Shown here one piece after another: positions 1 to 64,000 of a DNA stretch of 64,000 nucleotides (position 1 is its first letter; every line of letters starts with the position of its first letter). This DNA comes from Oculina patagonica (lineage: Eukaryota). Both the position numbers and the translations under genes were made by a program. The DNA is taken from the NCBI RefSeq assembly GCF_052425735.1, contig NC_135770.1, positions 29,698,001 through 29,762,000 on the forward strand, written 5' to 3'. Below the pieces are notes generated by a model that saw only the letters and a list, made by a program, of their open reading frames with translations, did no database searches and had not been told where the DNA came from.

Positions 1-327
1 TTTCAAAACTGTTTTCAAATATGACAAGTTCGCCACCGGCGGAATCGATCTTCTTTCTGTCTCTTCCTGTTCTTTGAAATCTTGGCATTCTTGAAAAACA
101 ATTGGTTCAAAAGTTTTCTTTTTCGCAACAAAAACCAAAAAGAAATTTTGGATATCTTTTTTTGTTAATTTAACGCCCAGACCATAAGGGTCATCGCCAA
201 ATTTTTTTTTGTCTTTTAGCCACTTGAGTCTTAAAGATTCAACAAAGTTATAATAAATCGTAATCATATTATCACTAAAGCCTGCAAGGAAAGAGGGGTC
301 ATCGCCAAAATATTTTTTTTCTTCCAT
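1..327 (-). CDS. Polinton hypothetical protein, N-terminal part (runs off window)
   Basis: Manually translated open frame from ATG at 327 to position 1 (MEEKKYFGDDPSFLAG...), with a repeated KKxFGDDP motif. Divergent from the integrase with 29 bp between them. Not in the ORF track because it has no stop in the window. Confidence 0.6.
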   Translation of the reverse strand, partial: MEEKKYFGDDPSFLAGFSDNMITIYYNFVESLRLKWLKDKKKFGDDPYGLGVKLTKKDIQNFFLVFVAKKKTFEPIVFQECQDFKEQEETERRSIPPVANLSYLKTVLK

Positions 328-356
328 GTGGGGTATATTAAGTCTTTTAAGTTCAA

Positions 357-1355
357 ATGGAAAATAATAAATTGGAGTCACGTTACTACAGCCCGCAAGG
401 ATACTGGAAAGGAATTTCTGCAATAAAAAAATTAGCCAAAGCCGCAAAGGTTTCCGAAGATACTGCAAAAAGGTGGCTCGGAAAACAAGCTTTTTGGCAA
501 ATCTACCTTCCCGCACCACGATACGTTCCTCGTCCAAAGTTTGATGTATCTTCTCCTAACACGGTCCACCAGGCGGACCTTCTTTTTCTTCCTCATGACA
601 GATTGCCGCGAGGGCGAAAAGTTTACAAATACGCGTTGACTGTTGTTGACGTTGCCAGCCGTTACAAAGAGGCCGAGCCTTTGACCTCCAAAGATTCAAC
701 TGAGGTTGCAAAAGGTTTTCAGGCAATTTACAGGCGTAGTGCACTGAAACGGCCACAGATGCTGCAAGTTGACCCCGGGCGCGAATTCATGGGCGCTGTT
801 ACCAAAGAAATGGAAAATCGAAAAACAGCTATTCGACGCGGGCGTGTTAACATTCACAGAGATCAGGCCATTGTTGAACGTTTCAACCGCACACTGGCAG
901 AGCGCCTGTTTGGTTATCAGTACAGTGTCGAGTTGACCCTGCCATCTGGCCAGCGGTCGACAGCGTGGGTTAAGAGGCTACCCGAAGTTATTGCCGCTCT
1001 GAACGACGAAGTTACACGGCTGACGGGCAAAAAACCCTCAGAAGCTATTACATTAAAAGCCGTTGCTGCCAAGCCGTCGACTCCTTATTTGAGGCCTGTT
1101 GGTAAGAGCGAAAAAAAGCTCCCCTCCTCCGTGAATGTAAGATATTTGTACCAGCCGGGTGAGTTGGAAGGGGGCGGAAAACGCGCCACCGATCCAATCT
1201 GGTCTTTGAAAGTCTTTTCGCTTGAAAGAGCTGTAATGAAACCGAACGAACCTGTTTTGTATTACTTGCAAGACGGCCCCAAGCGCGGCCTTGTGCGCGA
1301 GGAGCTGCTCGTCGTACCTCCTGATACCTCCCTTCCACCAGTCAATGCCAGCTAA
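357..1355 (+). CDS. Polinton retroviral-like (rve) DDE integrase
   Basis: Catalytic motifs HQADLL, QVDPGREF and IVERFNRTL; intronless 332 aa; stop overlaps the PolB stop. Confidence 0.95.
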   Translation: MENNKLESRYYSPQGYWKGISAIKKLAKAAKVSEDTAKRWLGKQAFWQIYLPAPRYVPRPKFDVSSPNTVHQADLLFLPHDRLPRGRKVYKYALTVVDVASRYKEAEPLTSKDSTEVAKGFQAIYRRSALKRPQMLQVDPGREFMGAVTKEMENRKTAIRRGRVNIHRDQAIVERFNRTLAERLFGYQYSVELTLPSGQRSTAWVKRLPEVIAALNDEVTRLTGKKPSEAITLKAVAAKPSTPYLRPVGKSEKKLPSSVNVRYLYQPGELEGGGKRATDPIWSLKVFSLERAVMKPNEPVLYYLQDGPKRGLVREELLVVPPDTSLPPVNAS

Positions 1356-4300
1356 AGGTGATATTCAATCGGTTCGGTATGTATTCCATCTTCAAGCACC
1401 CAACATTTGTCGTAATAGGCGCTCAAACCCAGTTTTTCCTGCTCGTAAGTTACCATTTTTCCTTCCTTCATACGGAAGCCTCTGTTATTCGCTTTATCAA
1501 CGCTGCCTTCAAGAGCTGCCTTGAAACGCTGCCAAGTTACTTCGTTTTGCGTCTTTGACATACCCTTGGTGCTAAACTTCTTTTTTTCACCCTCTTGTTC
1601 CTCGATGAAATAACACTTTGAGCAAAGCGCAATCATCCGGCTGCCCGTACACTCAAGCTTAAAGAGACCAGGGGTGCGGCCGCTCCACTTGTCCCAAGCC
1701 AGCCATTGTTTTTTTTGGGACTCGAATTCAAGTTTCAGCGAGAGTTTTACAATGTCTTCAAGCTTTTGTGCCGAAATACCCATGTAACAGCTGTCTGTGT
1801 CCATCTGAATGAGCTCAAAGTCTTTTCGATCAAAATACTTGTCTAAAAAGTCATAGTAAAACTTGAGCATGCGCAGCTTTGCTAACTGGTAAACCGCGAT
1901 CCCAACTTGAAAAGGCCTGCTAATAGTTATCCGGGGCTTGCGGCTTTCCAACTCGTACGCTTGCCCGATTTCATCTAAGTCGCTGAAATACGCGCTTCGC
2001 AGGGCTCGGTCAACCACTTTTTCGTCTTTTGTATAAATTACGTTTGTTTGCCTTTCTAGAGCCTCGATCAGCTTCCCGTAAGCACTGTTTCCTAACAGCT
2101 TAAACACGTCAGCCAGCAAGGCCTTGCTCTTATCAACATCGCCTGTTCTCCGCGCCTCTGTCACTTGTTCCACAAACCAGGGGAAGATTTTTTTCGGTTG
2201 GTAGTCAATCGTTCGATGAACCGCCGTTATCTCTGCCCCGTGTTCCACCTACCAGCGCAGCAGTGGAGCATACAAAAGAATTTTTTTAGCAGAAAGGGCA
2301 CCAACGAGCTTTTTACCATCTCCACGATTTCGTTTTGTTTTTTTCAAGTATTCATACATGTGTTGTGGAACAGCTTCGCCTGGAACCTCTTTGTTGTAAA
2401 AGAATGGCGGCATCTCTTCAAACTTTTTCCACAATTTTTTTGGAATCTCAATGTCAACTTCAGCAAATCCAAACCATTCGCGTATGTAAGAAGGATTTTC
2501 TCCTTTCAGATTTTCCGTAAGTAACTTCGCCTGCGCTTCTTCAACTCCTGAAAATTGGTGGACTTCTTCCTTTCCGCAGGGCATGTTTTCCAACATTGTT
2601 GACAGATAAAGGGCATTTGCATCGTAGCCGACAATGTTTTCGCAAAGATGCGGAGCGGGGTACTGGTGATCTCTGATCTTTGTGACGCCAACTTCGTGGT
2701 ACCTTGTAAATACTATGCTTGGCCCTCCAACAACAGCCCCTTTCAGCATTTCGTACGCTTCTTCGCAAGGAGAGAAAAGTTCAGCCCCTCTTTCAACAGA
2801 TCCTCTGAGCAGGTAATGTAAGCTAACCCCGGGAATACTGACTGCGTCTTTAAGAATGTCGATCCTCTTTTCAGTGTAAAAAGCTTTCATCTTTTCAAGA
2901 GCTTCCAGGCCAGGAGACACGTCGAGATTGTTGTAATAGCGCAGCCAGTCTGCAAAGGTGCGCATGCCCTTTTCCGCAAATGTGCGCTTACACCCCTCCC
3001 ACTCCTCCCTTGTGAGCACGAATTGACCTTTCAACTTCGAAAACCACGCTGGGTAGTCAGGAAGCCCAGGGTAGTCAAGCTTTTCGGGGGAGTCAAACCA
3101 CTCGTAAGGAAACCACGATTTCTTTGCCTCGCATTCATAAGCCTTAACCCACTTTTCATAGCTTGTTCCCGGCCCAAGGTAGTTGATAATGTCAAGGAAA
3201 CGGAAGCCCTGAGTGAGCAAGAACATGATTTTGTTACCATTTTTTGCCACTCTGACTTTGCCGGTTGTGTCAGCAAGGCGTTCTGCGAAGTTATTTTTGA
3301 TCAGATTCAGATCGTAACTGCCAGAGTTGAACCCAACGACAGGTACCTGGTTGCACCATTCCTCAATTTTTTTTCGCTGCGATTTTGGAAGCAGGCCTAC
3401 GTCTTCTGGCATAAATTCCGCTCTTACTTGAGCCCGGATGTTTTTTCCGCGTCTCTCTAGCTCTTCCATAAACTTGCGGACCAGCTCCGTGGGGTCTTTT
3501 TCACAGATGTGGGTGGGCTCTCTTTCAAGAGTGTCACCGATGCTTACCGAGATTGGCACGTGCGCGTTTTCGATCGTGAGTGTTGGCGTCGGTTCCTTTC
3601 GCTGATTATTGTCGCCATACGCCTCGAAATCGTACAAGATCGCGTGCGGGTAGCTTTTTGTTTGCGCCCGCGGTGGATCAACAACGATTTCCCTTACTTC
3701 GCACGCCCAAGCCTCGATCACGCGGTAGCCGGCCCTTCGAAGCAATCTTGTACGTTTCATTGTGGCTTTGAACCTGTCTTCGCGTGTTTGGTCGTTGCGG
3801 TCAATGATTTTGTTACGATCTTGCGGGTAACATTTTCGACACCCGTGCCAGTGGCACCCGTGGTATTGAAATACAGTTTTTGAAATAGGGTCGTACCCGT
3901 CGACAGGTGCGCGCTCAACCCAACGCTCGCCACCATGCCCGCACATTGCGTGGTGTATGTGAATTTTCCGCCGCTTGGCTTCTTGGTCAAGCCACCGAAG
4001 CGATTCTTTGGAAGCTTGATGGCTTGGATAGAAAGCCTTCTCAAAGCTTGTCTGCGGTTCCTCTACCTTTTTGCCCGGGCAATCGATTATTGTTTTTCCT
4101 TGGCTGCAAGTTTGGGTATGCCGTTTAAGGTTACAAACTTTTGTAAATCTCGCGTTGCAATGGGCGCATGCATACGTCTTGGCTAACCTTTCAATATCTT
4201 TAATAACAAACGCGTGCCCTTCCCAAATGCCGATCGTCAAAATGTTCTTTAGCATAGCTGAAGGGTTTCTTGTTAGGTTCCATACGACTTCCTCATCTTT

Positions 4301-5311
4301 TTCTCGCACAGGCTCATAAACTCGAATGCCGAGCCAATCAGAGAAAGCAGCCCCCTGATTCAAATGCCTTTCAACTTTATCTAATTCATCAAGAGATGTT
4401 TTTGGACAGTCGGTCGGCTCAGTTGCGAGTTTAAAAAACCTCTTTGCGAGACCACGAGCTGCTGCTGTGCTTCGATGTGGGAGTGCTCCTTGATGCACAG
4501 CAATGCAACGCCATAGACACAAATTATCTTGATAGGTATCTAGCGCAACCATTGGACCCGCACGCCCACGCGCAAGATTGCGCAGCCAGTCTGGTAAGGG
4601 GCCTGTGCCTAACAGCGGTTGACGGTCAAGCACAACCTTTACATCAACATTAAAAAAGCTTACAAACTTCCACTTTGTAGAAGGTCTTTTGATATTGTCA
4701 GGAGCCAGGCGTTTTGTCTCCTGTTCGCTCAACCATTTTTCCGCTGCAGAAAGCTTATTAACCCAAGGTGAGCCTTTGTTAATGTAGTAGACAATGACCG
4801 TATCATCATCAATGTTGCGCAACCGATACGAGTAAGCATGCCTGATATAAAACGCTGTGTTTACATTTTCTCGAATTTTTTCCATAAAGTTTGGTGTAAG
4901 GTCTTTTTCCAGACCTCTGATGAAGCGCCATCGAATAAAACGCCGGCCACTATTTTCCTCCCCCTCGTATTCCGCGACATCAAGAAGGTTTAAAATCTCA
5001 TTCTGATAATTTGTTACCACCCGATTTTCGTGTGGTACAAAAGGATCAAATTCATTTTGAATGTTCTTCCTTTTTTGCTCCTTCTTTTTCTTGCGACGAA
5101 GTCGCTGAGGGGGTTTTGGGTGATACTTTTGTGAAAGCAACGGTTTTAGCAAACGCTCTTGCACTTCAAGAGGGATCGGCTCATCCAGTATATTACGGAC
5201 AACTTCACGAAGTGGGCCGGACATTTGAGGCATTCGCTCAATTTGTTGCTCAACAAACTCGTCAAATTTACTTGCTTTGTTCGCGGTCAACAAGGTCTTG
5301 CTGAAAGCCAT
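1352..5311 (-). pseudogene. Protein-primed family B DNA polymerase (pPolB) interrupted by a single in-frame TAG at 2249-2251
   Basis: ORFs 2249..5311 and 1352..2248 are in the same frame (LLRW*VEHG). Motifs: ExoI ILYDFEA, ExoII GFNSGSYDL, ExoIII YYNNLDV, A GYDANALY, B KLLGNSAYGK, C MDTDS. The N-terminal region has an OTU-like Cys/His pair (DNLCLW...GHAF), a zinc finger and a Vsr-like nuclease motif. Confidence 0.93.
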
Positions 5312-5594
5312 GTACCTAAAAAGCGCAAATGTTCAATTGACATGAAGCCGCGAGCGGCATGCAAATTTGGGGGGGGTAAAAAAAAAAGCGTCGCGTGACG
5401 TGACAGTCAAGGGCATGTTTGCACATGTCAAGGGCTTGCCTGAACATGGTATGCAAATTTCGTTTTTTTCCGCGTGAGTAAACAAAGTCGGGGAACTTAC
5501 CGTGACTCATTAAAACTTGCCAAAAAACGAACTCCAGCTGCGATAAAAGCGGTTAATTCTGAGGTGTTATTCATTTGACTCACCTATTACTACT
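5260..5594 (-). repeat. Terminal/subterminal repeat (TIR) of Polinton element 1
   Basis: Reverse complement is homologous to 56539-56770 at the terminus and again around the ATG (ATGTCAATTGAACA...GTACATGGCTT...CCGCGAACAAAGCAAG). Confidence 0.8.
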
Positions 5595-32242: not shown

Positions 32243-32462
32243 TGGGCGGCGCAGTGGCCTAATAGCTATAACCCAGCCGACTCTGGATTAAGCGGTCCGG
32301 GTACCCGCTTGCCGGGATCATTGTGTTTGTGTTCTTCGGCGACACACTTTACTCTCAGTGCCCTTCTTCATCTAGAAGTATAAATGGCCACTGGTGAGCT
32401 GTAAGGGAAACTTGAAAAAATGCTTGGGGATATTAAACCTGCGATAGACATAATCCCATGCA
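32243..32462 (+). mobile_element. tRNA-derived SINE in ABCC intron 1 (matching copy at ~50178-50350)
   Basis: Head GGCGCAGTGGCCTAAT (A box) followed by a SINE body; present at the same intron position in both ABCC copies. Confidence 0.65.
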
Positions 32463-33335
32463 GGAACTTGACTTGAACTGACTTGGGACCTTTTGCTCTT
32501 CGCACAACATAGGACACTAACAAAGTACCTCTACTGAGCCCGGTTTTGGGCCACCTTGGACGACACACACAGCATACCCCCAAAAATCACCAATTAACTG
32601 ACCTCTTAATTTAAAGTCTAGAAAGCTCAATACATTTCTTTAAGGATGCCCTTGTGAAAATTAAATCACAATCAAAACATTTTTTCTCTCCAACCAAGCA
32701 CGTTCTATTAATACGTTCTATTTATTTTCTTGGTAGGTTATCAGTCTGAGCCAAGCGGATCTATCAAGAATCACAAGTGGATACATCATCAACCTCATCG
32801 CCTGTGATCTACAACGCTTCGAACATTCTGTTTCTTGCATGTTTCTGCTAATTCAAGCCCTCTTTGAAACGATCAGCATTTCGTTCCTTATGGCTTACTT
32901 ATTTGGATGGAGACCTTTTTTGGGAGTGGCTTTTTTGATCTTCCTTTCCGCGTATTACGGTGGAATGGCTAAAGTGTGCGCGACCCTACGATCACGAATC
33001 TCTAAAGTGGCTGATCAGCGCGTCAATATTATGAACTCTATTATCCCTGGGATTCGTACCATTAAGATGTACGCTTGGGAGTGGCCGTTCTTCAAAAGAG
33101 TGAAACGACTACGAAGGTATGTAAAGACAAGTCGAACATGCTATGTTTACGCTTATGACTTATGGCGGAACTATTATTGCGCCTTCCATTAACAGAACCT
33201 CTGTAGCTCAAAACACATCATCATCAACATCATCATTTGATCGTAAAAAATATTGTGGTTAATCATCGTGGTAGAGTACAATAATAATAAAGTATTTTCC
33301 GTTTGTCTCACGACGTAGTGTCACTTGTGATGTAG

Positions 33336-33379
33336 ATCGCGACGTTTCGACTGCACACTGCTAGTCTTCATCAGGCGAT
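33336..33379 (-). ncRNA. Minimal type I hammerhead ribozyme in Penelope terminal repeat (intact core)
   Basis: ATCGC-CTGATGA-A-GACT(agcagtgtgc)AGTC-GAAAC-GTC-GCGAT: helix I ATCGC/GCGAT, helix II GACT/AGTC, palindromic minimal helix III and GUC cleavage triplet. Confidence 0.85.
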
Positions 33380-33403
33380 AAGGTCGACTGGTCTGGTGTA
33401 ACC

Positions 33404-35668
33404 TTATAAAGCACGCTGCTGCGCTGTGATTGGTTGGTTTTCAACAGCTGTGATTGGTGCATTTCGATCCTCGCTGTTCCGGTGTGCTGTTGTTCCCTCA
33501 GGGATCCGCTGTCGTTCAGTTCTCCTGGTGTTGTGTTTTTTGATCGTGGGCATCCATGCTTCGGGAATTTCAATTCCACTATCCCTGTTGATATTGTTAG
33601 GGTGAAGTCTTATCTGAATTGCCTCTTTGACCCTGCGTGTGCACCAGTGTGGTTCACGATCAATAGACTTTTCCTTATTCCAAAGCGGGTAGTGTCCGGT
33701 GTTGTGGGTGTGCTCTGAAACGGCGGAGGTCTGGATACGGGCGAGTCGGATGTCCCGGTCGTGTTCTTTGATCCTGTCTTGCATAGGTCTTCCAGTCTCG
33801 CCGATGTAAACTTTGCCGCACTCACAGGGAATTCTGTAAACAACGCCATCTTCCTTAGTCGGATCAACGGCGTCTTTCGGCCGTACTAGGTGTGATCTTA
33901 ATGTAGTTTCCGACTTGAAAACAGCGCGTACGCCTTGTTGTTGTAGGCTGCGTCTACGTTGTTCAGAAAGACCTTTGACATAGGGTAGAACCGCAGTAGA
34001 TTTAAACTCGGTCGTAGGCTCAGCACTGGCGCTCGGCTTTCTGGTCTTGGTGATCTTCTGCAAGAAAGAAAAAGGATAACCATTAGAAACAAGAACAGGT
34101 GACAGATGTTTTTTCTCCTTGGATATAACAGATGGTTAAGTTACGAGGCGTTTAGCACGATCGTAAAGACACTTAACAATACCGCGTTTTACTGATAGAG
34201 GGTGGTGTGAATCATACGCTAAGTATTGATCAGTGTGTGTTGGTTTCCTATATACGCTGGTGGTGAGCCGGCCGTCTGGTTCTCTCGAAACTGTGGTGTC
34301 GAGGAAGGCGATTTTGCAGTCATTCTCTGTTTCTATGGTGAAGCGGATGGAAGGCTGCTGGTTGTTAAGATGTTGTAAGAAGCTGTCGACTCTTCCGCGA
34401 TCCAAAATGGTGAAGGTGTCGTCCACGTAGCGTTTCCATATCTTAGGCTTGCAGGATGATGAAGTTATTGCCTGCTCCTGAAAGCTCTCCATGTAGAGAT
34501 TAGCAACAACAGCGGAAACCGGACTTCCCATGGCTGCGCCTTCCCGTTGTTCGTAAATTGATCCGTTATACTGGAAGTATGTGGATCTCAATACGAAAAT
34601 CAGGAGGTCAGCGATCTGAGCAGGTGTTAGCGTTGTGCAATCGGCAAGGCTGGGATCGTTCTCTAGTTTCCGTAGCGCGGCTTGAACAGCGCCGTCGATA
34701 GGAACGTTTGTAAACAGCGACTCCACGTCAAACGACACCATGATCTCGTTGTCTAGGATCGTCTCACTGCTGATGGTGGATACGAAGTGGGCTGAATTGG
34801 TCACTGCGAAATCCGAGTTACCTGTTAAAGGAGACAAGATGTTAGCTCGGTAGGCGGACAAATCATACGCAAAGGTGTTTAGGCATGATACAATAGGTCT
34901 TAAAGGTACGTCGGCCTTGTGGATTTTAGGCAAACCGTAGATTCTTGGTGGCTGTTTGTGTCGAGGTCTGATCTTGTTATAAACAGCCTCTGATAAATCT
35001 CCGCTTCGTCTCAGGGTAAGCAGCTTTTCGGACAGCTTTCTGGTCAGACGGTCTGTCGGGTCTTTGTTCAGGAGCTGGTACGGTCTGTTCTCGATCAAGG
35101 TAGACATCTTAGTGCGGTAGGTATCAGTGTCCAGGACTACGCTAGCACGCCCTTTGTCAGCTGGGAGAATCATGATGGAATCATCCTCTTTTAGGCTTTT
35201 AAGCCCGTCTCGCATTTCTTTCGTGATGTTAGGCTCTGGTGGTTCTGCCTGTTGAAGAATGCTGTTGACGGCTCTTCTGACACGGTCTGCTTGCTCGGTG
35301 TTGAGTTGTCTGACAGCTGATTCGACACTGGCGATAATCTCCTTGGCAGGGATGTTCGTAGGAGTTACGGCGAAGTTCAGTCCTTTTCGCAACAGAGCTA
35401 TCTCGGCGTCGCTGAGGGACCTAGAAGATAAATTAATAACCCAGTTAGTTTTGTCAACATACGGTGTATCAGCAAGGGACACAGCCGCGTGTTTTTCGCG
35501 CACAAGTTTTTCAAACTTCTGCTTTTGTCTGTCTTTGGTGGAATAAAAGACTCGTTGGGTGTTGATCTTGATCTGTTCTAGTATTCTGTCTGCGGCCTCT
35601 GTCGAGAGAGCGGATGTTATGCTCTGTGCAGTGGTGTCTGCTTCCTTCTTCGAATCTCCCTTGGCCAT
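33404..35668 (-). pseudogene. Penelope RT/GIY-YIG endonuclease ORF with one in-frame stop at 34136-34138
   Basis: ORFs 34136..35668 and 33404..34063 are in the same frame, separated by one TAA and 24 open codons. Confidence 0.9.
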
Positions 35669-36161
35669 CTGCGTTGATCCGACTAAGCAAGATGGCGTTG
35701 TTTACAGAATTCCCTGTGAGTGCGGCAAAGTTTACATCGGCGAGACTGGAAGACCTATGCAAGACAGGATCAAAGAACACGACCGGGACATCCGACTCGC
35801 CCGTATCCAGACCTCCGCCGTTTCAGAGCACACCCACAACACCGGACACTACCCGCTTTGGAATGAGGTAAAGTTTATTGATCGTGAACCACACTGGTAC
35901 ACACGCAGGGTCAAAGAGGAAATTCAGATAAGACTTCACCCTAACAATATCAACAGGGATAGTGGAATTGAAATTCCCGAAGCATGGATGCCCACGATCA
36001 AAAAACACAACACCAGGAGAACTGAACGACAGCGGACCCCTGGGGGAACAACAGCACACCGGAACAGCGAGGATCGAAATGCACCAATCACAGCTGTTGA
36101 AAACCAACCAATCACAGCGCAGCAGCGTGCTTTATAAGGTTACACCAGATCAGTCGACCTT

Positions 36162-36205
36162 ATCGCCTGATGAAAACTAGCAGTGTGCAGTCGAAACGTC
36201 GTGAT
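36162..36205 (+). ncRNA. Hammerhead ribozyme copy in inverted arm (helix II G>A variant)
   Basis: ATCGC-CTGATGA-A-AACT...AGTC-GAAAC-GTC-GTGAT; the G-C pair closing helix II is broken. Confidence 0.7.
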
Positions 36206-36769
36206 CTACATTACAAGTGACACTACGTCGTGAGACAAACGGAAAATATTTTATTATTATAATCATTTTAGACCTCCAAGAAACCACAAGGCTTATGGGG
36301 GAGGCCACCTCGGGTTAATAATTGTGAATCCCGCTGCCTTTAATCAAATTTGCGATAACAATCAATGAACCTTTGAAAAAAGAAAAGAAAAAAACTAAAT
36401 GGATCGAAATCTACCAATGATAAGACACAGACGTGACCTCTGAATCCGTTAAGGTGTACTTTTGTTTCCTGGGAGGTCCGCTGAGATGATGAAAGGCAGC
36501 CGGAGAAAAACGCAAACGTTGATTGTTAAAAGGCGCAGTAACGTGAAAATAATTCTTCTGCTCAGAAAAAATTAAATTTAACGCACTAAATGAAGGTACG
36601 TTTTCATTTGGGGCGGTAGAGGGCAGCGTGTTGATGAGATTACGCTGCAAAACGGTAATAAATGAAGAACAAGAAAGAACGGGAGAATCGAGATGGGGAA
36701 TGGTCACATAGTTCTATCTTCCCTGTTAAGGTAAGGTAATTTGAGAAACATGAGTTTAACAGCAAGGAG

Positions 36770-36952
36770 CACCATAAATTTGTCCACAAAAAAATAACAA
36801 ATCCTGCAGCCCTCCCTCCCAATGAAAAAATACACTTTCCTCGCACCTGTTATCCGATATGCTACACCATAAATTTGTCCACAAAAAAATAACAAATCCT
36901 GCAGCCCTCCCTCCCAATGAAAAAATACACTTTCCTCGCACCTGTTATCTGA
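36770..36952 (+). repeat. Recent ~95-bp tandem duplication just upstream of ABCC exon 3
   Basis: CACCATAAATTTGTCCACAAAAAAATAAC...CCTCGCACCTGTTATC occurs twice, essentially identical. Confidence 0.9.
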
Positions 36953-39776
36953 TCATGCTACGCCTCACGGCAATATTTTTTCTTTTAGCCTAGAATTAAA
37001 ACTAACCCGATGGAAAACAGCAATATTGGCTACCTTCCAACCTCTTCTTTATACTTCTCCATCAATTGCTGCTTTTATATCCTTGGTTTCACTGGTATCC
37101 TCAGGAACTGAACTCACTTCATATAACACGTTCATGATTTTATCCCTGACAACTGTCCTAAAGAATTCTGCGTCTTGGAAATTATTTTTTCCTGGAAGCA
37201 TGCTTGCCGACTTTACCACAGCTTTGAATCGTATTCAGGAGGTACTTGAATTCCAGAATGACAACATCCACAAATACCTACACGATACTTTCACCAAAAA
37301 GGGATGCACTTCCCTGGGAGAAAATGACTTTCCTTTTAATCACAAAGATGGAAATTTCCAACTTTCCAGTAAAGCAAACACTAATGGCATTCACTTTGGC
37401 GAAGATCCATTTATTTCACTGCAAAATGTTGTCTGCAGTTGGTATTCTGACTGCAACAAACCAACACTGAAGTCTCTCAGTTTATCTGTTTATAAAGGCG
37501 ATTTAGTGTTCATCACAGGTCCCGTTGGTTGTGGCAAGTCATCCCTACTGTACGCTATCTTGCATGAAATTCCACTCTTGAAGGGAAAGATATCGTGTCA
37601 TGGCAAAATTTCCTGGGTTGGTCAGCAGCCCTGGGTGTTCTCCGATACGATACGGGAAAACATTTTGTTTGGTAAGCCTTTCGATCCGCAGAGATATCAT
37701 GCGATATTACAGGCCTGTGACTTGCAGAAAGACTTGCAAAAGTTCCCAGATGCAGACATGACACTAGTTGGAGAACGTGGAATAGTTCTGAGTGGTGGTC
37801 AGCGCACTCGTGTTGGACTAGCACGCGCTTTGTATTCTGATGCCGATATCTATCTTTTTGATGATCCATTAAGTGCCCTGGATACAAAAGTTGGATATCA
37901 CGTTTTCAAAACCTGTATCACCGGTTTACTTTGTGACAAGACCCGGCTGGTGGCCACTCACAATTTGGAAATCCTCAGGGATGCTGATAACATAGTGTTA
38001 ATGAAGGAAGGATCCAGTTTAGAGAAAGTCGATTTCAAAGCACTCGTCAAGTCTGGGTTTGAGATTGCTGCTATTGACAAGACAAAAATTGATGGAAGAG
38101 TCACGTCTGCGGAAAGAGCAACAGCACAACAAGAGTCAGCGACGATATTGGACACAGAATACGCCAGGCTAGAAACTGCTGAAGAAGATCGTTCGATAGG
38201 TTCTGTGTCCTGGACGCTGTACTTGGATTACATACGTGCTGGAATGCGTACAGCTTCAGCTGTGGCTCTGGTGATATTTTTCCTCATCGTTCAAGGTTAG
38301 CCTTAACATCATGCTTGTAAAACATTCAAGGAACTACACGCGAGTTCAAGTTCATTAGGAACTAACTAGAAGATGGTTTTTCATATTCTATAAAAAATAT
38401 TGTAGATATTGCAAGCTTAATGTCTAGGAAAGCTGCTAGTGGATGCCCGAACCATTAGGCGAGGGCATTCAGCTGCTTTTCTAGTCCTCAAAAGTGCATT
38501 ATTGTCTATAGGACATAGTCGAAAACACATCTTCTTGTTGGTATAGAATATAGCATAAAAATGTTTCTCCAAGACTGCTGATCTTACAAGACTCGCTTTC
38601 ACTTACGGCAGTCACGAATGCACCCAACACTGGTAAAGTGAAGGTTCAATTTATCCTTTTCTTTGGTGACTTCTTCATAAATGAACTAAGATACCATTTC
38701 ATTCATATTTCAAATTCATAGTCCTTCCTCCGACTCGAAAGAGATTCTAAAAGGTCGACAAAGGCGACAATCCTTGTAGAATTTAGACATTCAAATTTCA
38801 ACTTCATTCATGACCTCTAGCGTACGTCTGGCTGTAAGTTTTTAAAATTGGTCGCTAAATTCGATTTGAAAAGGACAAAATTGAAGTTTTCTGACAAATT
38901 ATGGCTAAAAATTTTTTCTTACCCTTAAGAGTTTCTAAACGCTCGCATTTGCATTTGTTTGCAGCAAAATGTTATTGAGTACATTATTATAAACATGGTA
39001 CATCAGCCCCCAGGTTTCATTTTCACCGTGTCGGTTTTCTTCTCTTATTTCGTTTAAATTAGGATTGCGTATATTCGCGGATTGGTGGCTTCTTCATTTG
39101 ACTAGCGGATCACATGACCGGAAGCATCAAACTGTCGATCTTTACATATATGGCTGTATGGTAGCCGGGGCCTTTCTTCTCTCTATCGCTAGAACAGTCG
39201 TGTTTGTCAACGCTCTGTTGAACTCCTCTCAGCACCTACACAACTCCATGATGTCAGCAGTGTTAAAAGCACCGGTTTTGTTCTTCGACACAAATCCAGT
39301 TGGACGAGTACTAAACAGGTTTTCGCGAGATATAGGCATTATGGACGAACTAATGCCGGATGTATTTCTGGAAGCAGTTGAGATTGTTCTGTATTGCATT
39401 GGAGCAGTTGTTCTGCCGTCCATCCTGAATCCATGGATTATTCTGCCAGCTATCCCGCTCATGGTCCTGTTCATGTGGTTTGGGCGGTATTACCTAAGAA
39501 CATCACGTGATCTGAGGCGACTGGAAGGAGTAACTCGAAGCCCAGTACTTTCTCATTTTAGTGACACGTTGGATGGACTGGTGACTATTCGCGCATATAA
39601 GAAAGAAAATGCGTTTCTGGAAGAATTGTACAGGTTTGGTCTAGCATTTTGTCGATAAAATATCGTGTTAATCTTGTACGATGCTATCCATACATCTTTG
39701 CAGAGGATTAACTTGACTTCACTGAGTTACTCTCTTAGTCAATATAAATGATAAACTCGCTTAAGTGTTTGCAGTA

Positions 39777-49281: not shown

Positions 49282-49613
49282 TAGGAAAGAAAAGATCTCT
49301 TACAAGTAAATTTTTCGAAGGTGCATGCTTAATTATGCTAGTTTGGCATTTTTAAAAGCTGATTGACAGCTCGAGTCTGATCCATATAAAAGAGCGCGCG
49401 CCAAATCTTATCTTCTGAGTAGTAATAGTCAGGATCTAAAGTGATCGTCATGTAGCTGTGGAGCCTAAAAATAAAGCAAGTTGGAACGGTAGCTGTGATT
49501 GAGTGTTGAAGTTGAGGGTATCAATCCCCCAAAACCTTTCTTCAACAAACCTTTTTAAAAAACTTAAATGAGTTTCTTTTCATTTCAGATTTCTCTAATT
49601 TCAGAAAAGGTCA

Positions 49614-52600
49614 ATGGCTGCAGAGTATAATCGTCTAGAGTCAAAAACCAAACAAAATCCCAAGAAAAACGCTAACATCTTTTCCATTCTTTCATTCTCT
49701 TGGGTGGGAGAGCTTCTTTCCATCGGGAACAAGCGTCCTCTAGAAACTGACGATCTATTTCCTTTACCTGACGAGGACAAAACCGCACCGTCAACGGAAA
49801 AAGTACAATGTACATGGAGTGAAGAAAGACGTGTTCCTGGAAAAAGGGGAAATGGACATCGACTGTTCAGAGCGCTCATTGCAATGTTCCCCTGGACTGA
49901 TTACATGTTCGTTTTGAGTACAACGTTGTTAGATGGCATTGGCAATTTTCTCCAGCTGGTGTTTTTGAGTTTGTTGTTACCGGAATTAATGAAATCTTCC
50001 AATAAAGAGCTGGAATGGACGTATATATTCGCTGGCGGTATCTGCCTGAGTTCTTCCGTGCGATTTCTTGCTAGACACCATCTCGCTTATAATGCTTATT
50101 TGATGGCGCTAAGATGGAAGTCAGCAACAATTGGGATCATATACAAAAAGGTATCGTAGATCGTAGTTGTTGTTCAGCGGGAGGCGCAGTGGCCTAATGG
50201 TTAGCCCATTGGACTCCGGATTTAGCGGTCCCGGGCCCCGTTGGCCGGTGTCATTGCATTGTGACCTTGGGCTACGCAAGTTGCTCTGATAGTGCCCCTC
50301 TTCATCTAGAAGTATAAATGAGCATCGGAGAATTTTTAGGGCAACTTGATAAAAAAAGATATATGTTATTTGCCGGCCGGGAGGTCCGTATAGGGACCTT
50401 TCCTTTCTTTTTTCTTGCGTTGTTTAAAACTTGTCTATTGTTTAGACTTGTGACTTTATGGACAAAGAACGCTAATTAGTGCCCCGCGCAAGATAAGTGT
50501 GATTTTTTCGCTTTGTTTTAACAGTAATTAATTGAGCTATTTTAACAAAAGGAATAAACAACATTAGGGGCGCTTTCCATTCGACCAAAACTTCTGGTTT
50601 GAGTTTCCAGAAAATTCCAGTGCAAATGGAACAGCATTTTCCAACTTTTCCGGTTGACTGCACGGAAGGCAAAAAACATTTGCATATGGTCAGGTAGTGC
50701 GTCTAATATGGAAATTTCTTCGGTGCATTAAAATAATGCACTGTGGCCGGTTTCGCAAATAAAAAGCATTCCGAGCACTGAAAATAAACTCCGTGAATGA
50801 CATCGTGGCCGCAAATACAGGGACCTTTCAAAAGGCACACTACAAGCAACGAAAAGGTCGCCAACCCAAAAAGTTTAATGAGCGATAATGAGCGTAGCCT
50901 GCACGCACGTTATAAACATTTGTACATTTCTTTGCTGCCGCCTGCAAAACAACAACGAAAAGCAACCGAGTTCACCTAAATTTTTTATGCTTTTTCCAAA
51001 ATTTCCGGAAAAGTGGTCAACCTCGCAAGGTAGACCCAAATTTTCGAAAACAATTTCCGGGAACTTTCAGTTCCATTTGATTTTGCTTCTGGAATTTCCG
51101 GGGTTTTCGGTTGAATGGTTCGCATTTCGGAAAGTCAACACTTTCCGGATTTTCTGGAAACTTTCCCAGGAAATTTCTGTACCATTCGTCCTTGTTCCGA
51201 AATTACCGGAATTTTTGGTCGAATGGAAAGCGCCCCAGCATTACCCCAATCAAATGACCGGTATTTCGATCCTTCTTGAGTAAGTGTCTACTTATAAAAA
51301 CCCACTCAGAACAATTCTCATCATTCGTTCATGTTCGTTCATGGAAACTACTAAGGAAAATTTAAGCAATGCTCTATGCAATTCAGACATATGATCAGAA
51401 TAAAATTAGCGTTTCTTCTCTACACGAGTCGTAGGTAGTATGTCAAACATTAGAAGTCTTTACTTAAGTTAGGGGGCGACTGAACTTATTTGGGGGCGAC
51501 GTAACTTCAGTTTTCGGGCGACGTGACCTGAAATGGGGCGACGTTACTTGGAGTGACCGTGCAATGGGGCGACATGACCTACATCCGGGAAAAACTGTAC
51601 CCAGGGTCTTGAGGCCGTAGGCCGAGGGCCGTGCTCAAGACCGAGGGTACACTTTTTTCCCATACAGGTCAACCTAGGCCGGCAAATAACGTCTTTATTT
51701 TTTTTTCCTACTTAAATATGTTATGTAAAGAAATTTAGAAAGTTTGTGTCAAAAACTCTATGTGTGTTTAGGCGCGCATTCAATTTCGATGTTGAGTTGA
51801 TCGACAGGTTTATCGAATAGTGATTTCAACTTAAAGCACTGAACGACCCATCCACCTACCTGTCTCAGTTAACAGTAACCGAATACTTTGTTTACAGTCG
51901 TATAGCTAAATCTATACTCTTTACAACTATTTTAATTGAAAGTAAATAATGATCCGATTATTTTTCCACCCACTGAGCACTATACTTTCTATCAATTTCC
52001 TTGGTAGGTTCTTAGTCTGAGCCAAGCGGATCTATCAAGGATCACAAGTGGATACATCATCAACCTCATCGCCAGTGACCTACAACGCTTTGAACATTCT
52101 GTTTCTTGCATTTTTCTGCCAATTCAAGCCCTCTTTGAAACAAGTGGCGTGTCGTTTTTTATGGTTTACTTATTTGGATGGAGACCTTTATTGGGAGTAG
52201 CTTTTATGATCTTCCTTTCCCTGTATTACGGTGGAATGGCTAAAGTGTGTATGATCTTACGATCACAAATCTCTATGGTGACTGACAAGCGCGTCAATAT
52301 AATGAACTCTGTTATCCCTGGGATTCGTACCGTTAAAATGTACGCTTGGGAGTGGCCGTTCATCAAAAGAGTGAAACGACTACGAAGGTATGTAAACGAA
52401 ATTAAAATCTCCATAATAACCTCAGGACTTCAGGACTTGGGGCCACCGCGAGGAAACTATTATACCAGAAAAATTATATCTAGTAAAGCCTTTTACCAGT
52501 ATGTGGCTTTTAGCTCTCGGCGCGAATTCTGTAGCATGAAACGGATAGAAGTGTTGCTACTAGCCACCCCCCCCCCCCTAAATGGGATGATAGTCGATAG

Positions 52601-54062
52601 CGGGGACCCAGTTATAAAAGTGGGTGGAACGAGGAAGGGTAAGAGAAAAGAGTCTTGACCTATTGCAAGAACAGTAAACAATGCCCCGGCGAGAGTTCGA
52701 AACCAGCCCGCTCGATCAAGAGGCCAGTCCTATAACCATTAGGCCACCGGGCCTACCACATTAGACCTTATATATGGTAATGTCATATGTTCTAAATTCA
52801 CCACCAGGCCTCGTTTACGCAAATTATTCTCAACCTCTGCCACCTTCCTGCAGTTTTCAGGTGGGTATAAGGGAAATCCTTGCTGATGTCATTGTTTCCG
52901 TTTTGCCTCTTTAGCATGCAACTTTGCGTAGAGAAGACATCACGCTATATAGCAATTCACTCTAGATATGTTTTAATACTCGGCGAAATTTTCAGCTCTT
53001 TGCTTTCAATGTTCCAGGAGATATTAACTTCCAAAACTGCAAAATTTCTGGCTGGCAAAAGCGCTAATCGAGCCTATACATTCTTTGTGAAACTTTTAGT
53101 TTTAAAACTCCTATCACACGGGCTCAAATATATAGTGAAAGGTAATCGCGCAATGTTTTTTCAATATTCAGAATTAAAAGTTTTGTAGCTCGATTAGAAA
53201 ATGAAGCGTTTATACCGATGAAAGAAATATTGTAAACAAGGATTCTCCTATTCTTTTCATTTTTGCCGAATTGGTAATTTAATAGTAGCCCCCGCAGGGT
53301 TTGGTCCAGAGGCCACTTGCTCTCTTCCTTTTACAAAGTCTCGAAGACCGCGAAATTTGTCCAGAAACGAGTACGAAGATATCAACAAGTTTTTTCGCGA
53401 TTAACGATAAGCAAGAGTCAGTCCAATGCCGCCATTTGCCAGGCACAATCTACTTGAACGAAAAAAGTCTCGATCAGTCCACATCCGGACGAGATTTACT
53501 AGACAACATGTGGCATCAAGGGGATGTAATTCAAAATAGATCTCGAGACAATTATTAAAGACCCGCGGCAGGCTTTTGCATTGACATAGGTGAAAAATTC
53601 TTTCGGCATCCTTTCGACTCAGCTGTAAATCAAAGTTGATAATTCTTGCTTGGGAACTCAGCCCAAATATATTGGGCGCAATTGGTATTTTAAAACATTT
53701 TTCTGTTGCTCGCTGAGAACACTCATTACAGAAAAACACGGCAAAATGACGTCAAGCTGTTGCAATTAATTAAATTGACGTTATCATTAATCTTTCAGAT
53801 TTTTTTGCACAATTTCGCTTTTTTGTGATCACTTGGCTTTAACATTTCATTTTAAATCGTACGGACCCCTCGTTCCATCTTGAAGAAGAGAAGGCCAGAA
53901 TTAGAAGACACAAGCCGCCAGGGAGTGTTTTCATCTTCAAAAACATCCTAAACAGAAAATTGACTTCCAATCAATTTAGTAGATAGAGTCTAGATAAAAG
54001 AGGCAAGACACCAAGCGAAAGAATTGACCGTAGTAAGAGATGTGCTGAAAAAACAAAACAAC

Positions 54063-54093
<31 letters not shown>

Positions 54094-55691
54094 AAACCAG
54101 CGGGGGCAGCTGTAGTGTCAACTATTTCTAGTTTACGATAGGATTTACAAGTTTGCCAGGCCACTGGCTAGAGGGCCACTGGTTTTTCAGTTTTTAACTG
54201 TTACGTGTTCACCCTCTTTAAATAAAGTTGATTATTTTTATAATTATTACTTCGAACGCGAGGCTTTGTGGTGAAAATAGCCAGTCTGACGTAAACAGAA
54301 TAAATTAAGTTTAGCGGCTAACTGAATAACAGTTGTTATGTGAGCAAGTTATTCCTTATGGCAGTATTTGTTTTCTTTCAGCCTAGAATTGAAATTGACT
54401 CGATGGAAAACAGCAATATTGGCTTCTTTCCAATCTCTTCTTCACACTTCTCCATCAATTGCTGCTTTTATTTCTTTCGTTTCACTGTTATCCTCGGGAA
54501 CTGAACTCACTTCATATAACACGTTCATGATTTTATCCCTAACCACTACTATGAAGGTTTCTGTTTCCTGGCATCTATCTTTTTCAGGAAACATTCTTGC
54601 CGACTTTGCAACAGCTCTGACTCGTATTCAGGATATACTTGAATTTAAGAGTGATGACAACATCCACAAATACCCTCACGATACTTTTGCTGAAAATAAC
54701 TGCGCTGAACTGAAAGGAAATAAGTTTCCTTTTAATTCCAAGGATGAGAAATTTCAACTTTGCAGCAAAGTAAACGCTAATGACGTCCACGTTGGAGAGG
54801 ATCCATGTATTGTACTAGAAAATGTTGTCTGCAGTTGGCATGGTGATTGGAACAAACCAACACTGAAGTCTCTGTGTTTATCGGTTTCTGCAGGCCATTT
54901 AGTGTTCATCACAGGTCCCGTTGGTTGTGGCAAGTCATCCCTACTGTACGCTATCTTGCATGAAATTCCACTCTTGAAGGGAGAAATATCATGTCCTGGT
55001 AAAGTTTCTTGGGTTGGTCAGCAGCCCTGGGTATTCTCTGGTACCATACGGGAAAACATTTTGTTTGGTGAGCCGTTTGATCCGCAGAGATATCATGCGA
55101 TATTACATGCCTGTGACCTGCAGACAGACTTGCAAAGGTTCTCGGATGCAGACATGACACTAGTTGGAGAACGTGGAATAGTTTTAAGTGGTGGTCAGCG
55201 CACTCGTGTTGGACTAGCACGCGCTTTGTATTCTGATGCCGATATCTATCTTTTTGATGATCCATTAAGCGTCCTGGATACAAAAGTCGGATGTCACATT
55301 TTCAAAACCTGTATCACTGGTATACTGCGGAAAAAGACACGACTGGTGGCCACTCACAACTTGGAAATCCTCAGGGATGCTGACAACATAGTAGTAATGA
55401 AGGGAGGATCCAGTTTAGAGAAAGTCGATTATGACGGGCTCATTAAGTCTGGCTTTAAACTTGCTGCTTTGGAGGAGCCAAAAATTGATGGAAGAGGCTT
55501 TTCTTCCGAAAGATCATCAGCACAAGAAGAGTCAGCGATGATCTCAGACACAAAATACGCCAGACTAGAACCTGCTGAAGAAGATCGTATGATAGGTTCT
55601 GTGTCCTGGAAGCTGTACTTGGACTACATACTTGCTGGAATGCGTACAACTTCAGTTGTGGCTTTTGTGATGTTTTTCCTCGTCGTTCAAG
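49614..55691 (+). CDS. ABCC4/MRP4-like ABC transporter copy 2, first three coding exons (49614-50150, 52008-52387, 54382-55691); rest expected beyond Polinton 2
   Basis: Paralogous to copy 1 with identical splice positions; open frame; NBD1 motifs GPVGCGKS, LSGGQ and IYLFDD. Confidence 0.88.
50365..51690. mobile_element. Nested non-autonomous DNA transposons in ABCC copy 2 intron 1 (inner Harbinger MITE 50567-51236)
   Basis: Outer arms GTTATTTGCCGGCC / GGCCGGCAAATAAC. Inner TIRs GGGGCGCTTTCCATTCGACCAAAA / TTTTGGTCGAATGGAAAGCGCCCC. GGGCGAC repeat cluster at 51471-51585. Confidence 0.75.
52520..52754 (-). mobile_element. tRNA-derived SINE
   Basis: Minus strand GGTGGCCTAATGGTTA (A box) and GGTTTCGAACTC (B box); same head family as 32243. 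Confidence 0.6.
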
Positions 55692-55724: not shown

Positions 55725-56538
55725 CGGTCAGTGTAAAACGCAGACTGCGGACTGCAGACTGCAGACTGCAGACCGGGGGTAAAATGCAGACTGCAGACTG
55801 CAGACTGCAGACCAAGGGTAAAATGCAGACCGAGGGTAAAGTAACGAAATACGAGTCACAAAGCCATTTTTCCCCGCCGGCTCCAAATTTCGAAGGAATG
55901 TATGTCAGACAACGTTTCCCCCCGTTTCCCATGAGCGATCACGAAAATGAACTAGATTTAATGCTGACACAAATTTGATCAAATTTAACTTTTTGATACA
56001 GCAAAGGCATTTTAAAGATTTTTGTGAAACTTAAACTTCAGTTTACAATTAATCTTCTACGTTTGTAAACCGGATGAAACTGAACGGTTTACAGATGTCA
56101 CAGATCATTTAGAAGAATAAATTTTTTACTTGCCGACACAGCAGGATCACGTTTACAGCGATCATATTATTCTGCGGCCACAGCTCTTTCAAGTGTTTTT
56201 AAGTGGCACAGATTAAACCCTTCCGCAGTTAAGTTATAAAAAAACGGCTTTGCTTCGCTAACCGTCGTAATAAAACACCATAAAAATAAAAGGTACAAAA
56301 CTTTTATGTTTAGCGAGGCCGGTAAACAAATGATGTGTCGACGGACGTAGTGCGAGCGCGTTTAAAATTAATTTCCGAAAAAGGCCGCGCTGAAAGGGCT
56401 GTAAACAGTTCAGTTTCATCCGGTTTACAGATGCAGAAGACTTGAAGTTGAAGGTTTAGTCTAACAGCGTTAAGTCTGTAAAAAAAAAAGAAAAATTTGA
56501 ACACATTTGTGTCGGCATAAAATTTATTTATCGCCAGC
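55725..56538. mobile_element. Repeat element starting with an ACTGCAG microsatellite; the insertion site of Polinton 2
   Basis: (ACTGCAG)n array at 55740-55830; internal inverted repeat TGTAAACCGGATGAAACTGAAC (~56064) / GTTCAGTTTCATCCGGTTTACA (~56408). Confidence 0.55.
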
Positions 56539-56716
56539 AGTAGTAAAGGGGGGGTCTCACAAATACCACCTGAGAAGTAGTCGCTTTTTTCACAGGCGGT
56601 ATTTGTTTACACAACTCTTTTTACCAATAAAAACTTAAAAAATCGCCCTTTCTTCTCGAAGCGCCAAAAGCCGCGAGCGGCTGAATGTCAATTGAACAAT
56701 TGTGATTACTAAGTAC

Positions 56717-57124
56717 ATGGCTTACAGCGAGACCTCGTCAGCCGCGAACAAAGCAAGACAGTTTGATTCGAACGAGTGTTCTTTGATTTGTTTATGTGAA
56801 AGTGAATGTTTTTGTCTTCCAAAACAAAAGTCTATCAAGGATGTGAAAAAGAAATATCTTTCGATTGACGGAAAGACATTTAAAAAATCAGCAAGCGTCT
56901 GGTCCTTAAAAGATTATAAATGCGAAGCTTGCGACAAAACGTTTACACAATGCCACTCGCTTCGATCCCATGAAAGGTATCATTGTAAAAAACGAGAAAC
57001 ACAAAAAACACCAAAAGAAAAATGCCTTAAATGTGGTAAAATGCTTCATATATCGACCGTTTACAGACACAAAAAAAATGGTTGCCCTGCTAGCGGCACG
57101 CAAAATCGCGAGCGGCTTACGTGA
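56717..57124 (+). CDS. Small C2H2/C2HC zinc-finger protein
   Basis: YKCEACDKTFTQCHSLRSHERYH and CLKCGKMLHISTVYRHKKNGC; ATG context is homologous to the PolB start of element 1. Confidence 0.75.
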   Translation: MAYSETSSAANKARQFDSNECSLICLCESECFCLPKQKSIKDVKKKYLSIDGKTFKKSASVWSLKDYKCEACDKTFTQCHSLRSHERYHCKKRETQKTPKEKCLKCGKMLHISTVYRHKKNGCPASGTQNRERLT

Positions 57125-57702
57125 GTTGCGTGACATTTTCAGAGAGAGTCTGGAAACCATATTTCTAGTTCTCAGGCCCTTGGACGAGCAGAAAGAAACA
57201 TGGCGGCCTAATCAGGATTCAGTGTTTGGGCCGATAAAAAACGAAACAGAACAGATATTACAAAAAAAATACGCTCAGTTAACGCGCTGTAATTTTTTGT
57301 GCCCCCACAGAAGCTGGCGAAGTGAAGCGAAGAGAAGAAATCGAGAAATAACAGGATTTGATCACAGAAGTTTATCGATCGATCGAAAGAACTTTCCCGA
57401 AACATCGGACTCAATCGGGCCTGTTTATTTTTTTTCCGCTTCAAGCATTGCATCCACGACTTGATATGTTATCTGTCTGACCTCATTTTGCCAAACGGGA
57501 GTAGAAAGTTCGGTTAAAATAAAGCAAATCGCTTGGAAAAGCACCATCATTTTAGCCTATTTACCAAACTTTACCAAGTGTCTAATTAATGATGACATCA
57601 TCCTGATGCCCAAAAGCGCATGCGCACTTGCTCAAATATTGCAAAATTTAGGTGAATGACATGGAAAAGGGTACCACAAGTGAAAAATGTGACAAAGTGA
57701 AC

Positions 57703-62775: not shown

Positions 62776-64000
62776 ATGGATGCTGTTCAAGAAAACCTTC
62801 GACCGGGACGCGTAGAGAAAACCCTCGGCGCACTGAAAGCCGAGCGAGCTGTAAAACGAATCACTTTTGACCGCACTGAAGCCAATCCAGAGGAAACGTT
62901 GTATGTTTCAGTGCCAAAGCTGAACGAAAACGAGGTCATTGTGCCTGGCTCGCTGGCGCTGCGCTTCAACATCGACTTGAGCGGAGGCCATGCCAACAAC
63001 TTTCTGGTTGACAACGTCAGCCGAGCTCTGGTCGACAAGTTTGTTGTAAAGTACGAAGGCACCGTCGTGCAGGACACGGTGGGCTATGACATCTACAAAA
63101 TATTTGAGGATTTTTTCCTTTCGCAGGAGGAGCGCGACGACAGGGTGCCAGAGGGCATTCAGAGCGAGGACCTCAACAAAATTCGCTCAAATGCTGGCGA
63201 TAAGAAAACTTCAGGAGTCGAAGCAGAAAAAAAGCTGAATGAGCTATATGGAAATAAATACCGGATCCGTCTGGATCACCAGATTTTAACTGACCACGGG
63301 GCATTTTATCCTCAGGCACTATACAACGATCTTCTGTTCGAACTGAAGCTCGCGGCAGCCGAACATGTTGTAAGAGGCTCAGATGCAACAAAACTGAAAT
63401 ACAAGCTGACAAACATACAGCTGGAGTACGAGATGATAAGAAGCAAGGAAATTGCAGATGAGGCGTTCAGCGCTTACTCGGGCGGCAAAGAGTTCGCTTA
63501 CGACCACATCCAGCGTGCCGAAGTTGTTACTTTTGCAAAAGGATCCGACACACGTCTGAATCTTAAGGTCAACCCGCAGAGGAGGTCCCTAAAAGGTATC
63601 TTGCTACTTTTTATAGAGCAATATGCCAAAGGTGCAAGGATCTCGGAAAAGTACATTAACCCAGACCTTACAAAAGTAAGCGTCACTGTCAACGGCTCGC
63701 CAAACATGCTGTACAACAACGGCATCGAAGGAATGGACATATGGGAAGAAGTTAAAAGATTCTACATGAAAGAAAAAAATAAAACGCAGCACATGACCCT
63801 GCAAAAGTTTTACACAGAAGACAAGTTCGGCCTTCTGATTGATCTGCGTTCCATGGCTGACCACTCGATGCACGGAAGCGGCAAGCGCCTTGTGAACACA
63901 AAGGACGGTGTCCAGCTTGAGCTAGAGAGGAAAACAAGCGGCTCAGGTAATTTGAACTGCCACATTTACGTAATCAGCGACGCCCAAATGAATATAATTA
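62776..64000 (+). CDS. Major capsid protein (double jelly roll, hexon-like), runs off window
   Basis: Manually translated open frame from ATG 62776 to the window end (MDAVQENLRPG...ANPEETLYVSVPKL...VPGSLALRF...LTNIQLEYE...RSLKGILLLF...FGLLIDLRS...YVISDAQ). Absent from the ORF track because it has no stop in the window. Confidence 0.88.
   Translation, partial: MDAVQENLRPGRVEKTLGALKAERAVKRITFDRTEANPEETLYVSVPKLNENEVIVPGSLALRFNIDLSGGHANNFLVDNVSRALVDKFVVKYEGTVVQDTVGYDIYKIFEDFFLSQEERDDRVPEGIQSEDLNKIRSNAGDKKTSGVEAEKKLNELYGNKYRIRLDHQILTDHGAFYPQALYNDLLFELKLAAAEHVVRGSDATKLKYKLTNIQLEYEMIRSKEIADEAFSAYSGGKEFAYDHIQRAEVVTFAKGSDTRLNLKVNPQRRSLKGILLLFIEQYAKGARISEKYINPDLTKVSVTVNGSPNMLYNNGIEGMDIWEEVKRFYMKEKNKTQHMTLQKFYTEDKFGLLIDLRSMADHSMHGSGKRLVNTKDGVQLELERKTSGSGNLNCHIYVISDAQMNII

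Follow-up and report, generated by a model that had tools for sequence, protein, structure and literature searches.

A Polinton terminal repeat that extends past the start codons of two unrelated genes in Oculina patagonica

Introduction

The boundaries of inverted repeats move, by expansion or contraction, as far as the neighbouring genes or into them, as at US1/US12 of HSV-1 and in the "ebb and flow" of chloroplast inverted repeats. In human cytomegalovirus, the available text of two sources describes IRS1 and TRS1 as genes spanning repeat/unique junctions, with a promoter and 5' coding sequence in common and differing 3' ends (PMC3541802, PMC9319463). Terminal inverted repeat promoters also transcribe the two convergent genes of maize MuDR (PMC3310237, available part), and in the ambisense densovirus JcDV (p9/p93) promoters at both inverted terminal repeats are described, in the available part of the source, as driving different genes inward (PMC5978394). 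Polintons (Mavericks) are defined by a size of 13-25 kb, terminal repeats of 100-1500 bp and a target duplication of 5-8 bp (PMC10748475, available part).

Start codons inside Polinton repeats were not described in the available portions of PMC11131425, PMC11296320, 10.64898/2026.07.28.741278, PMC10748475, PMC11788076, PMC8472843 and PMC1864894. Polinton-directed literature searches, whose scope stopped short of supplements, Repbase-type entries and subscription papers, returned nothing on start codons within repeats, and the words "promoter" and "zinc" were absent from the main text of the stony-coral polintovirus survey. The arrangement itself is already known from cytomegalovirus and MuDR, and within that scope no report was found for Polintons.

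The locus analysed here is a stretch of 64,000 nucleotides of the Oculina patagonica genome (G000:C13:29698001-29762000), hereafter the window.

Results

Two Polintons in the window

The window contained parts of two separate integrated copies, element 1 and element 2, the ends of which are read inward throughout. Element 1 (15,278 bp) ended at window position 5594 and element 2 (15,766 bp, i.e. 15.8 kb) began at position 56539; both had an AGTAGT terminus and a 5-bp target duplication. Both elements are Polintons, and their sizes, the 216-bp repeat and the 5-bp duplication fell within the definition ranges of PMC10748475. The following features were located:

56534..56538, no strand: 5-bp target-site duplication on the left of element 2, the same 5 bases following its far end (G000:C13:29770304)
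62776..64000, plus strand, continuing past the window: double jelly-roll major capsid protein of element 2 (Foldseek match)
2249..5311, minus strand: pPolB frame of element 1 (1020 aa; Pfam DNA_pol_B_2)
357..1355, plus strand: RVE integrase of element 1 (Pfam rve, E 4e-7, slightly below the curated cut-off)

The polymerase matched DNA_pol_B_2 with E-values of 1.4e-12 in element 2 and 3.8e-6 in element 1, where a 172-aa ORF at 1352-1870 resembled the separated C-terminus of its pPolB. The rve match of element 2 (E 5.6e-7) was likewise slightly below the curated cut-off, on a short frame of 195 aa, and an A32-like packaging ATPase was present in both elements (Pox_A32, E 1.3e-11 in element 2 and 3.3e-17 in element 1). 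The capsid protein of element 2 had no match in a sequence search of solved structures; its predicted model (mean pLDDT 62) matched the iridovirus, PBCV-1 and PRD1 capsids in Foldseek, with a best E-value of 1e-10. Concerning the adenovirus-like protease, element 1 showed only a weak Peptidase_C5 match (E 0.03) and none was recognised among the subset of element 2 ORFs that was scanned. The closest named homologues were annotated from a stony coral.

The two elements (window 1-5594 with L002; 56539-64000 with L003) had closely related PolB and integrase genes and different middle modules, that of element 1 containing collagen-repeat, phospholipase A2-like and weak protease matches. Elsewhere in the window, inverted repeats of 589 bp (98% identity) surrounded a 510-aa ORF (34136-35668, minus strand) at 33281-36260, which is likely a young DNA transposon. 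Direct repeats at 31597-37557 and 49542-54953 (82-92% identity, spacing 17-19 kb) are likely exons of tandem host paralogues.

Terminal repeats and start codons

56539..56754, plus strand: left terminal inverted repeat of element 2 (216 bp, starting AGTAGT, equal to the right repeat)
56717..57124, plus strand: 135-aa zinc-finger gene of element 2 (Cys cluster and two predicted C2HC fingers, about residues 67-121)
56717..56754, plus strand: coding part of the element 2 repeat (codons 1-13, common to the far-end PolB)
56756..56767, plus strand: codons 14-17 (RQFD) of the zinc-finger gene, PolB-type and outside the repeat, matching PolB starts of other copies
5324..5594, minus strand: right terminal inverted repeat of element 1, stopping before the PolB start

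The left repeat of element 2 was identical to the right repeat (G000:C13:29770089-29770304) at 216 of 216 bases, and both repeats ended 38 nt downstream of an ATG. At the right end, outside the window, lay a 1299-aa pPolB starting MAYSETSSAANKA-L. As the repeat passes the ATG by 38 nt, this polymerase and the 135-aa zinc-finger protein have 13 N-terminal residues in common. Residues 14-17 are unshared in element 2 because its PolB carries a 75-nt gap beginning exactly at the repeat boundary; the same RQFD codons lie inside the repeat of the C2:13.4 copy, where 17 codons are shared, and are missing from the element 2 PolB. In the zinc-finger gene, codons 14-17 are what remains of a repeat that once reached further.

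The right and left repeats of element 1 were about 96% identical, with one gap of about 73 nt, and their match ended about 12 nt short of the PolB ATG at 5311. The opposite end of element 1 carried an unrelated 67-aa ORF without the shared peptide. Identical 5' coding sequence inside the repeat, followed by differing 3' sequence, was therefore found in element 2 (13 codons) and not in element 1.

An initial annotation, made from the two ends visible in the window, had proposed that the repeat reaches into coding sequence in both elements and supplies a tag of about 17 residues. The end sequences that it quoted are real (77 of 97 bases match between 56670-56766, plus strand, and 5262-5358, minus strand), and the similarity between these ends runs from 46 nt upstream of the ATG to codon 17 before falling to chance; this likeness compares two different subfamilies and not the two ends of one element, and within element 2 only 13 codons are shared. 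Extension of the repeat into coding sequence was borne out in element 2 and not in element 1. The polymerase predicted at the right end of element 2 was found with the same start, shared over 13 residues instead of 17, while the start predicted at the left end of element 1 was replaced by the unrelated ORF. Repeats ending upstream of the ATG and an opposite gene devoid of the peptide had been named as grounds for abandoning the idea, and both were observed in element 1. The claim holds in one of the two elements and goes too far as a general statement.

Survey of related elements

Both ends were examined in 39 elements; the queries that located them were element 1, element 2, the zinc finger and the motif. 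Of these, 33 were scored; six lacked the motif described below at one end, and the compound contig C1318 was left out. The 33 scored elements represent a few subfamilies recovered with the queries chosen here and are not independent events. The 5-bp target duplication was identified by script in 10 of 12 elements and read by eye in the remaining two.

The repeat crossed the ATG in 13 of the 14 zinc-finger-first elements, with 6, 8, 13 (four copies), 17, 61 (five copies) or 63 shared codons. The fourteenth (C14:0.03) was decayed and ambiguous, and showed no ATG crossing in the ungapped test. Among elements with another first gene, the ATG was crossed in 0 of 19, the end identity stopping 12-18 nt before it (the end pairing of one of them, C2:45.6, is less certain). 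Trees of three PolB segments (23, 23 and 22 rows; the divergent C4:12.7 type, unusable as an outgroup, was left out) placed all boundary states on closely related, recombining PolBs; no order of the boundary states was obtained from them, as the three segments gave conflicting, unrooted topologies. When contigs of four putative-RNA runs were compared with 56400-57400, two carried the 61-codon junction form; these may be DNA and show no start site.

Several copies had particular structures. At one element end (L016:920-1900, G000:C4:42651920 onward), several tandem re-copies of the PolB N-terminal segment were fused to only two CP-type fingers, another chimeric form. At L032:768-2400 (G000:C1318), a zinc-finger gene and a PolB lay in tandem at the same end, each with its own motif; in this zinc finger the PolB-like start was limited to a short stretch, and an in-frame Met preceded the Cys cluster. 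A high-copy subfamily (L034/L035, G000:C4:12714707-12730785) possessed the internal genes of element 2 with different end repeats and a different first gene, the block in common beginning inside the second finger (window 57055 onward). Its very divergent 1284-aa polymerase-like ORF aligned over only 174 nt (74%), and this divergent type recalls the two-polymerase swap of nematode Polintons as described in the available part of PMC10748475. In one copy (L024/L025, G000:C11:13082001-13098000), the capsid and ATPase genes and their neighbours formed an internal block, about 4.8 kb long, that occurred three times in tandem; this may be real or an assembly effect. Another first gene (L070, L049) of about 71-77 aa, Cys/His-rich and starting MATKSYSSEA, resembled the divergent polymerase start at YSSE and is possibly, judging from this resemblance, an older capture.

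The zinc-finger gene

The zinc-finger gene proposed in the initial annotation is real. Against the distant C1318 copy its dN/dS was 0.17-0.21 (dS 1.3-1.55), and among near copies 0.21-0.45 (10 pairs from 5 of 13 sequences); as judged from these ratios, the zinc-finger core is under purifying selection. In the predicted model the fingers reached a pLDDT of about 93-95 and the N-terminus was of low confidence. About two dozen small homologues had the core in common and varied starts, and homologues were present in outside assemblies and metagenome contigs; a search of IMG/VR returned no relative. Pfam matches of the ORF were below curated cut-offs (zf_UBZ was also matched by 6 of 21 zinc-finger homologues), and the fold comparison returned weak C2H2 arrays, the best being the CTCF fingers (E 0.013, none below 0.001), the fingers here being C2HC. 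A role of the protein as a regulator is plausible from the predicted fold.

Of 21 metagenome loci, 13 were inspected: AGTAGT was present within 900 nt upstream in 9 of the 13, whereas the motif TCAATTGAACA and both element ends were found in none of them. On one metagenome contig (L091:1270-2290), a start-less PolB and a zinc-finger gene were arranged head to head, separated by about 50 nt of sequence that contained no repeat, which could be a collapsed end-to-end junction.

A candidate promoter motif

56688..56698, plus strand: motif TCAATTGAACA, candidate core promoter of element 2, 29 nt before the ATG
5330..5340, minus strand: motif TCAATTGAACA of element 1, 29 nt before the PolB ATG
56624..56628, plus strand: putative CCAAT box-like word in the element 2 repeat (pattern scan)

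Each end of the elements scanned (7 of 7) had a single exact TCAATTGAACA, and all scored ends carried it before the inward ATG, mostly at 28-30 nt and at 38 nt for one gene type. Its distance to the ATG was near-constant, yet it lay 150-349 nt from the terminus. In the whole genome assembly (G000), the motif followed by 17-19 nt and an ATG gave 327 matches, compared to 14 for the reversed control; as this count includes copies of few families, it shows conserved spacing and not independent origin. The motif, the core of which is an 8-bp palindrome, was also found upstream of some second, internal genes and in the tandem zinc-finger/PolB pair (L070, L072, L032). No TATA box or initiator was found in the pattern scan. 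Taken together, TCAATTGAACA is a candidate core promoter or start-site element. That the same promoter stands at both ends of element 2 is plausible on the positional evidence of the motif, and this feature would be more general than the shared peptide.

Origin and constraint of the shared peptide

A profile built from 101 of 108 outside PolB N-termini gave 28.9 bits to the 61-codon zinc-finger start, a score reached by 0 of 300 shuffles, and no score to the element 2 zinc-finger start. At the sequence level, a polymerase origin is thus shown for the long (61-codon) form only, in which residues 20-61, approximately, are PolB-derived. The first 17 residues had no match among 108 outside PolB starts (62-185 of 200 shuffles scored equally), and the comparison with outside PolBs gave no polarity for the origin of the first 13-17 codons. 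A zinc-finger origin of the first 17-20 residues was also considered and dropped, 24-283 of 300 shuffles scoring equally. Among 28 outside homologues tested, weak PolB-like starts were detected in P0031 (0 of 300 shuffles) and P0011 (3 of 300), and these may be independent captures.

The tag had a pN/pS of 0.54 (15 non-independent pairs, 12 codons), compared to 0.32-0.39 for the PolB body, which suggests a constraint weaker than on the PolB body, not shown to be absent. It was predicted to be disordered, with a pLDDT of about 50, a low value that partly reflects the thin N-terminal alignment. In every aligned copy the junction fell short of the zinc-finger cluster's first cysteine by 2-5 codons. 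A junction that never passes this cysteine is what one would expect were overwriting confined to a dispensable leader.

Discussion

Probable homogenisation of element ends

Element 2 and the C10:4.72 copy differed at five bases in codons 2-13, yet the two ends were identical within each. The C2:2.5 copy is a recombinant, its PolB end being 93.8% identical to the element 1 type and its zinc-finger end 94.6% identical to the 61-codon type, with outer parts that do not differ between the ends until a 15-nt indel is reached; C8:1.19 and C14:0.03 had similarly mixed PolB starts. The reading that we favour, with a probability of about 0.7, is that paired ends copy one another during replication and so keep the repeats of element 2 identical, that this leaves both genes under the same promoter, and that the peptide is carried along passively as the boundary slides.

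In such a scheme, TCAATTGAACA would act as a core promoter or start-site element and the terminal genes would be co-expressed. The two ends would pair, by analogy with the panhandle formed by the ends of displaced adenovirus strands (PMC9863843, available part), and would be homogenised inward up to a mismatch or indel; we infer from this analogy that end pairing drives conversion in these Polintons. Elements of the zinc-finger lineage have the ATG within the homogenised zone, which ends after 6, 8, 13, 17, 61 or 63 codons, and the zinc-finger gene would tolerate overwriting because its N-terminus is unstructured, the junction staying before the first cysteine cluster. The peptide common to both genes is likely a by-product, given that sister copies differ in how far the overlap extends.

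Alternative explanations

That the ATG is crossed only in front of zinc-finger genes could also mean a selected fusion. A functional, selected peptide, serving to target, pair or co-degrade the polymerase and the zinc-finger protein or turning the latter into a PolB mimic, would account for the PolB-type start kept in 13 of the 14 scored zinc-finger-first elements, for the conserved PolB segment of the 61-63-codon form, for the weak PolB-like starts of P0031 and P0011 among the 28 tested, and for the pN/pS of the tag. We consider it unlikely given the tenfold variation in length, the element 2 PolB that is devoid of 25 of these codons and nevertheless exists in a near-identical second copy, the same PolB type without the shared tag in the element-1 group, and the unrelated starts of most outside zinc-finger homologues. 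A functional role for the shared N-terminal tag of the initial annotation is unsupported: among closely related polymerases the overlap spans anything from 0 to 63 codons, and outside this genome the tag is not conserved.

Somewhat more doubtful still is the possibility that TCAATTGAACA is a replication, packaging or translation-leader signal instead of a promoter, the terminal genes not being co-regulated. The motif does sit in terminal repeats, which in adenovirus are replication origins (PMC9863843, available part), and its palindromic core and the scan devoid of TATA box and initiator agree with such a role, but its spacing is set by the ATG and not by the terminus, and it also precedes internal genes and both members of the tandem pair. 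Finally, the short zinc-finger ORF with its sub-threshold Pfam matches might be open by chance downstream of a PolB start that was duplicated, or result from misassembly. This explanation is largely refuted and very improbable, given the dN/dS against the distant copy, the homologues in outside assemblies and metagenome contigs, and the same junction at separate insertions, each with its own target-site duplication.

Returning to copying between paired ends, a bolder extension is that end-homogenisation is a recurrent gene-building device. A PolB N-terminus grafted to a zinc-finger protein from the same promoter would yield a PolB mimic binding the repeat motif or PolB partners and setting the balance between replication and silence, with independent cases in other lineages (P0031, P0011) and TCAATTGAACA as the first defined core promoter of animal Polintons. 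We regard this extension as speculative and improbable.

The copies form a natural series (0, 6, 8, 13, 17, 61 and 63 shared codons) in which a repeat boundary slides into one gene and remodels a second. The switching-on of Polinton genes is barely described, and an ATG-fixed motif at both ends provides a handle for start-site mapping and reporter tests. This testable candidate promoter and the series of sliding boundaries are the useful outputs of the analysis, which also carries a warning for annotation, as short ORFs at Polinton ends risk being mis-called as polymerase fragments.

Comparison with known systems

The elements resemble the Polintons/Mavericks (Polintoviricetes), including the stony-coral polintoviruses, as described in the available parts of PMC10748475 and PMC11131425, in their size, repeats, 5-bp duplication, pPolB, RVE integrase, A32 ATPase and double jelly-roll capsid. 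Convergent genes that begin at either end, as in MuDR and the densovirus, were found here as well, with an inward ATG after the motif at both ends of the scored elements. MuDR is a cut-and-paste transposon for which the available text describes no shared coding sequence, and JcDV is an ssDNA parvovirus for which no shared N-terminus is described in the corresponding part of its source. Like IRS1/TRS1, the gene pair of element 2 spans the repeat junctions, with the same upstream and 5' coding DNA. According to the available text on these genes, about two thirds of the IRS1/TRS1 protein is shared, similarity in the 3' parts is about 50%, and the two genes are functionally redundant. Homologous 3' parts and a large shared domain were not found at this locus, where the bodies of PolB and the zinc-finger protein are unrelated and the 13 shared residues are predicted to be disordered. 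Unlike IRS1/TRS1, it is 4-45% of a small zinc-finger protein that is shared with an unrelated polymerase, across a boundary that varies within one genome.
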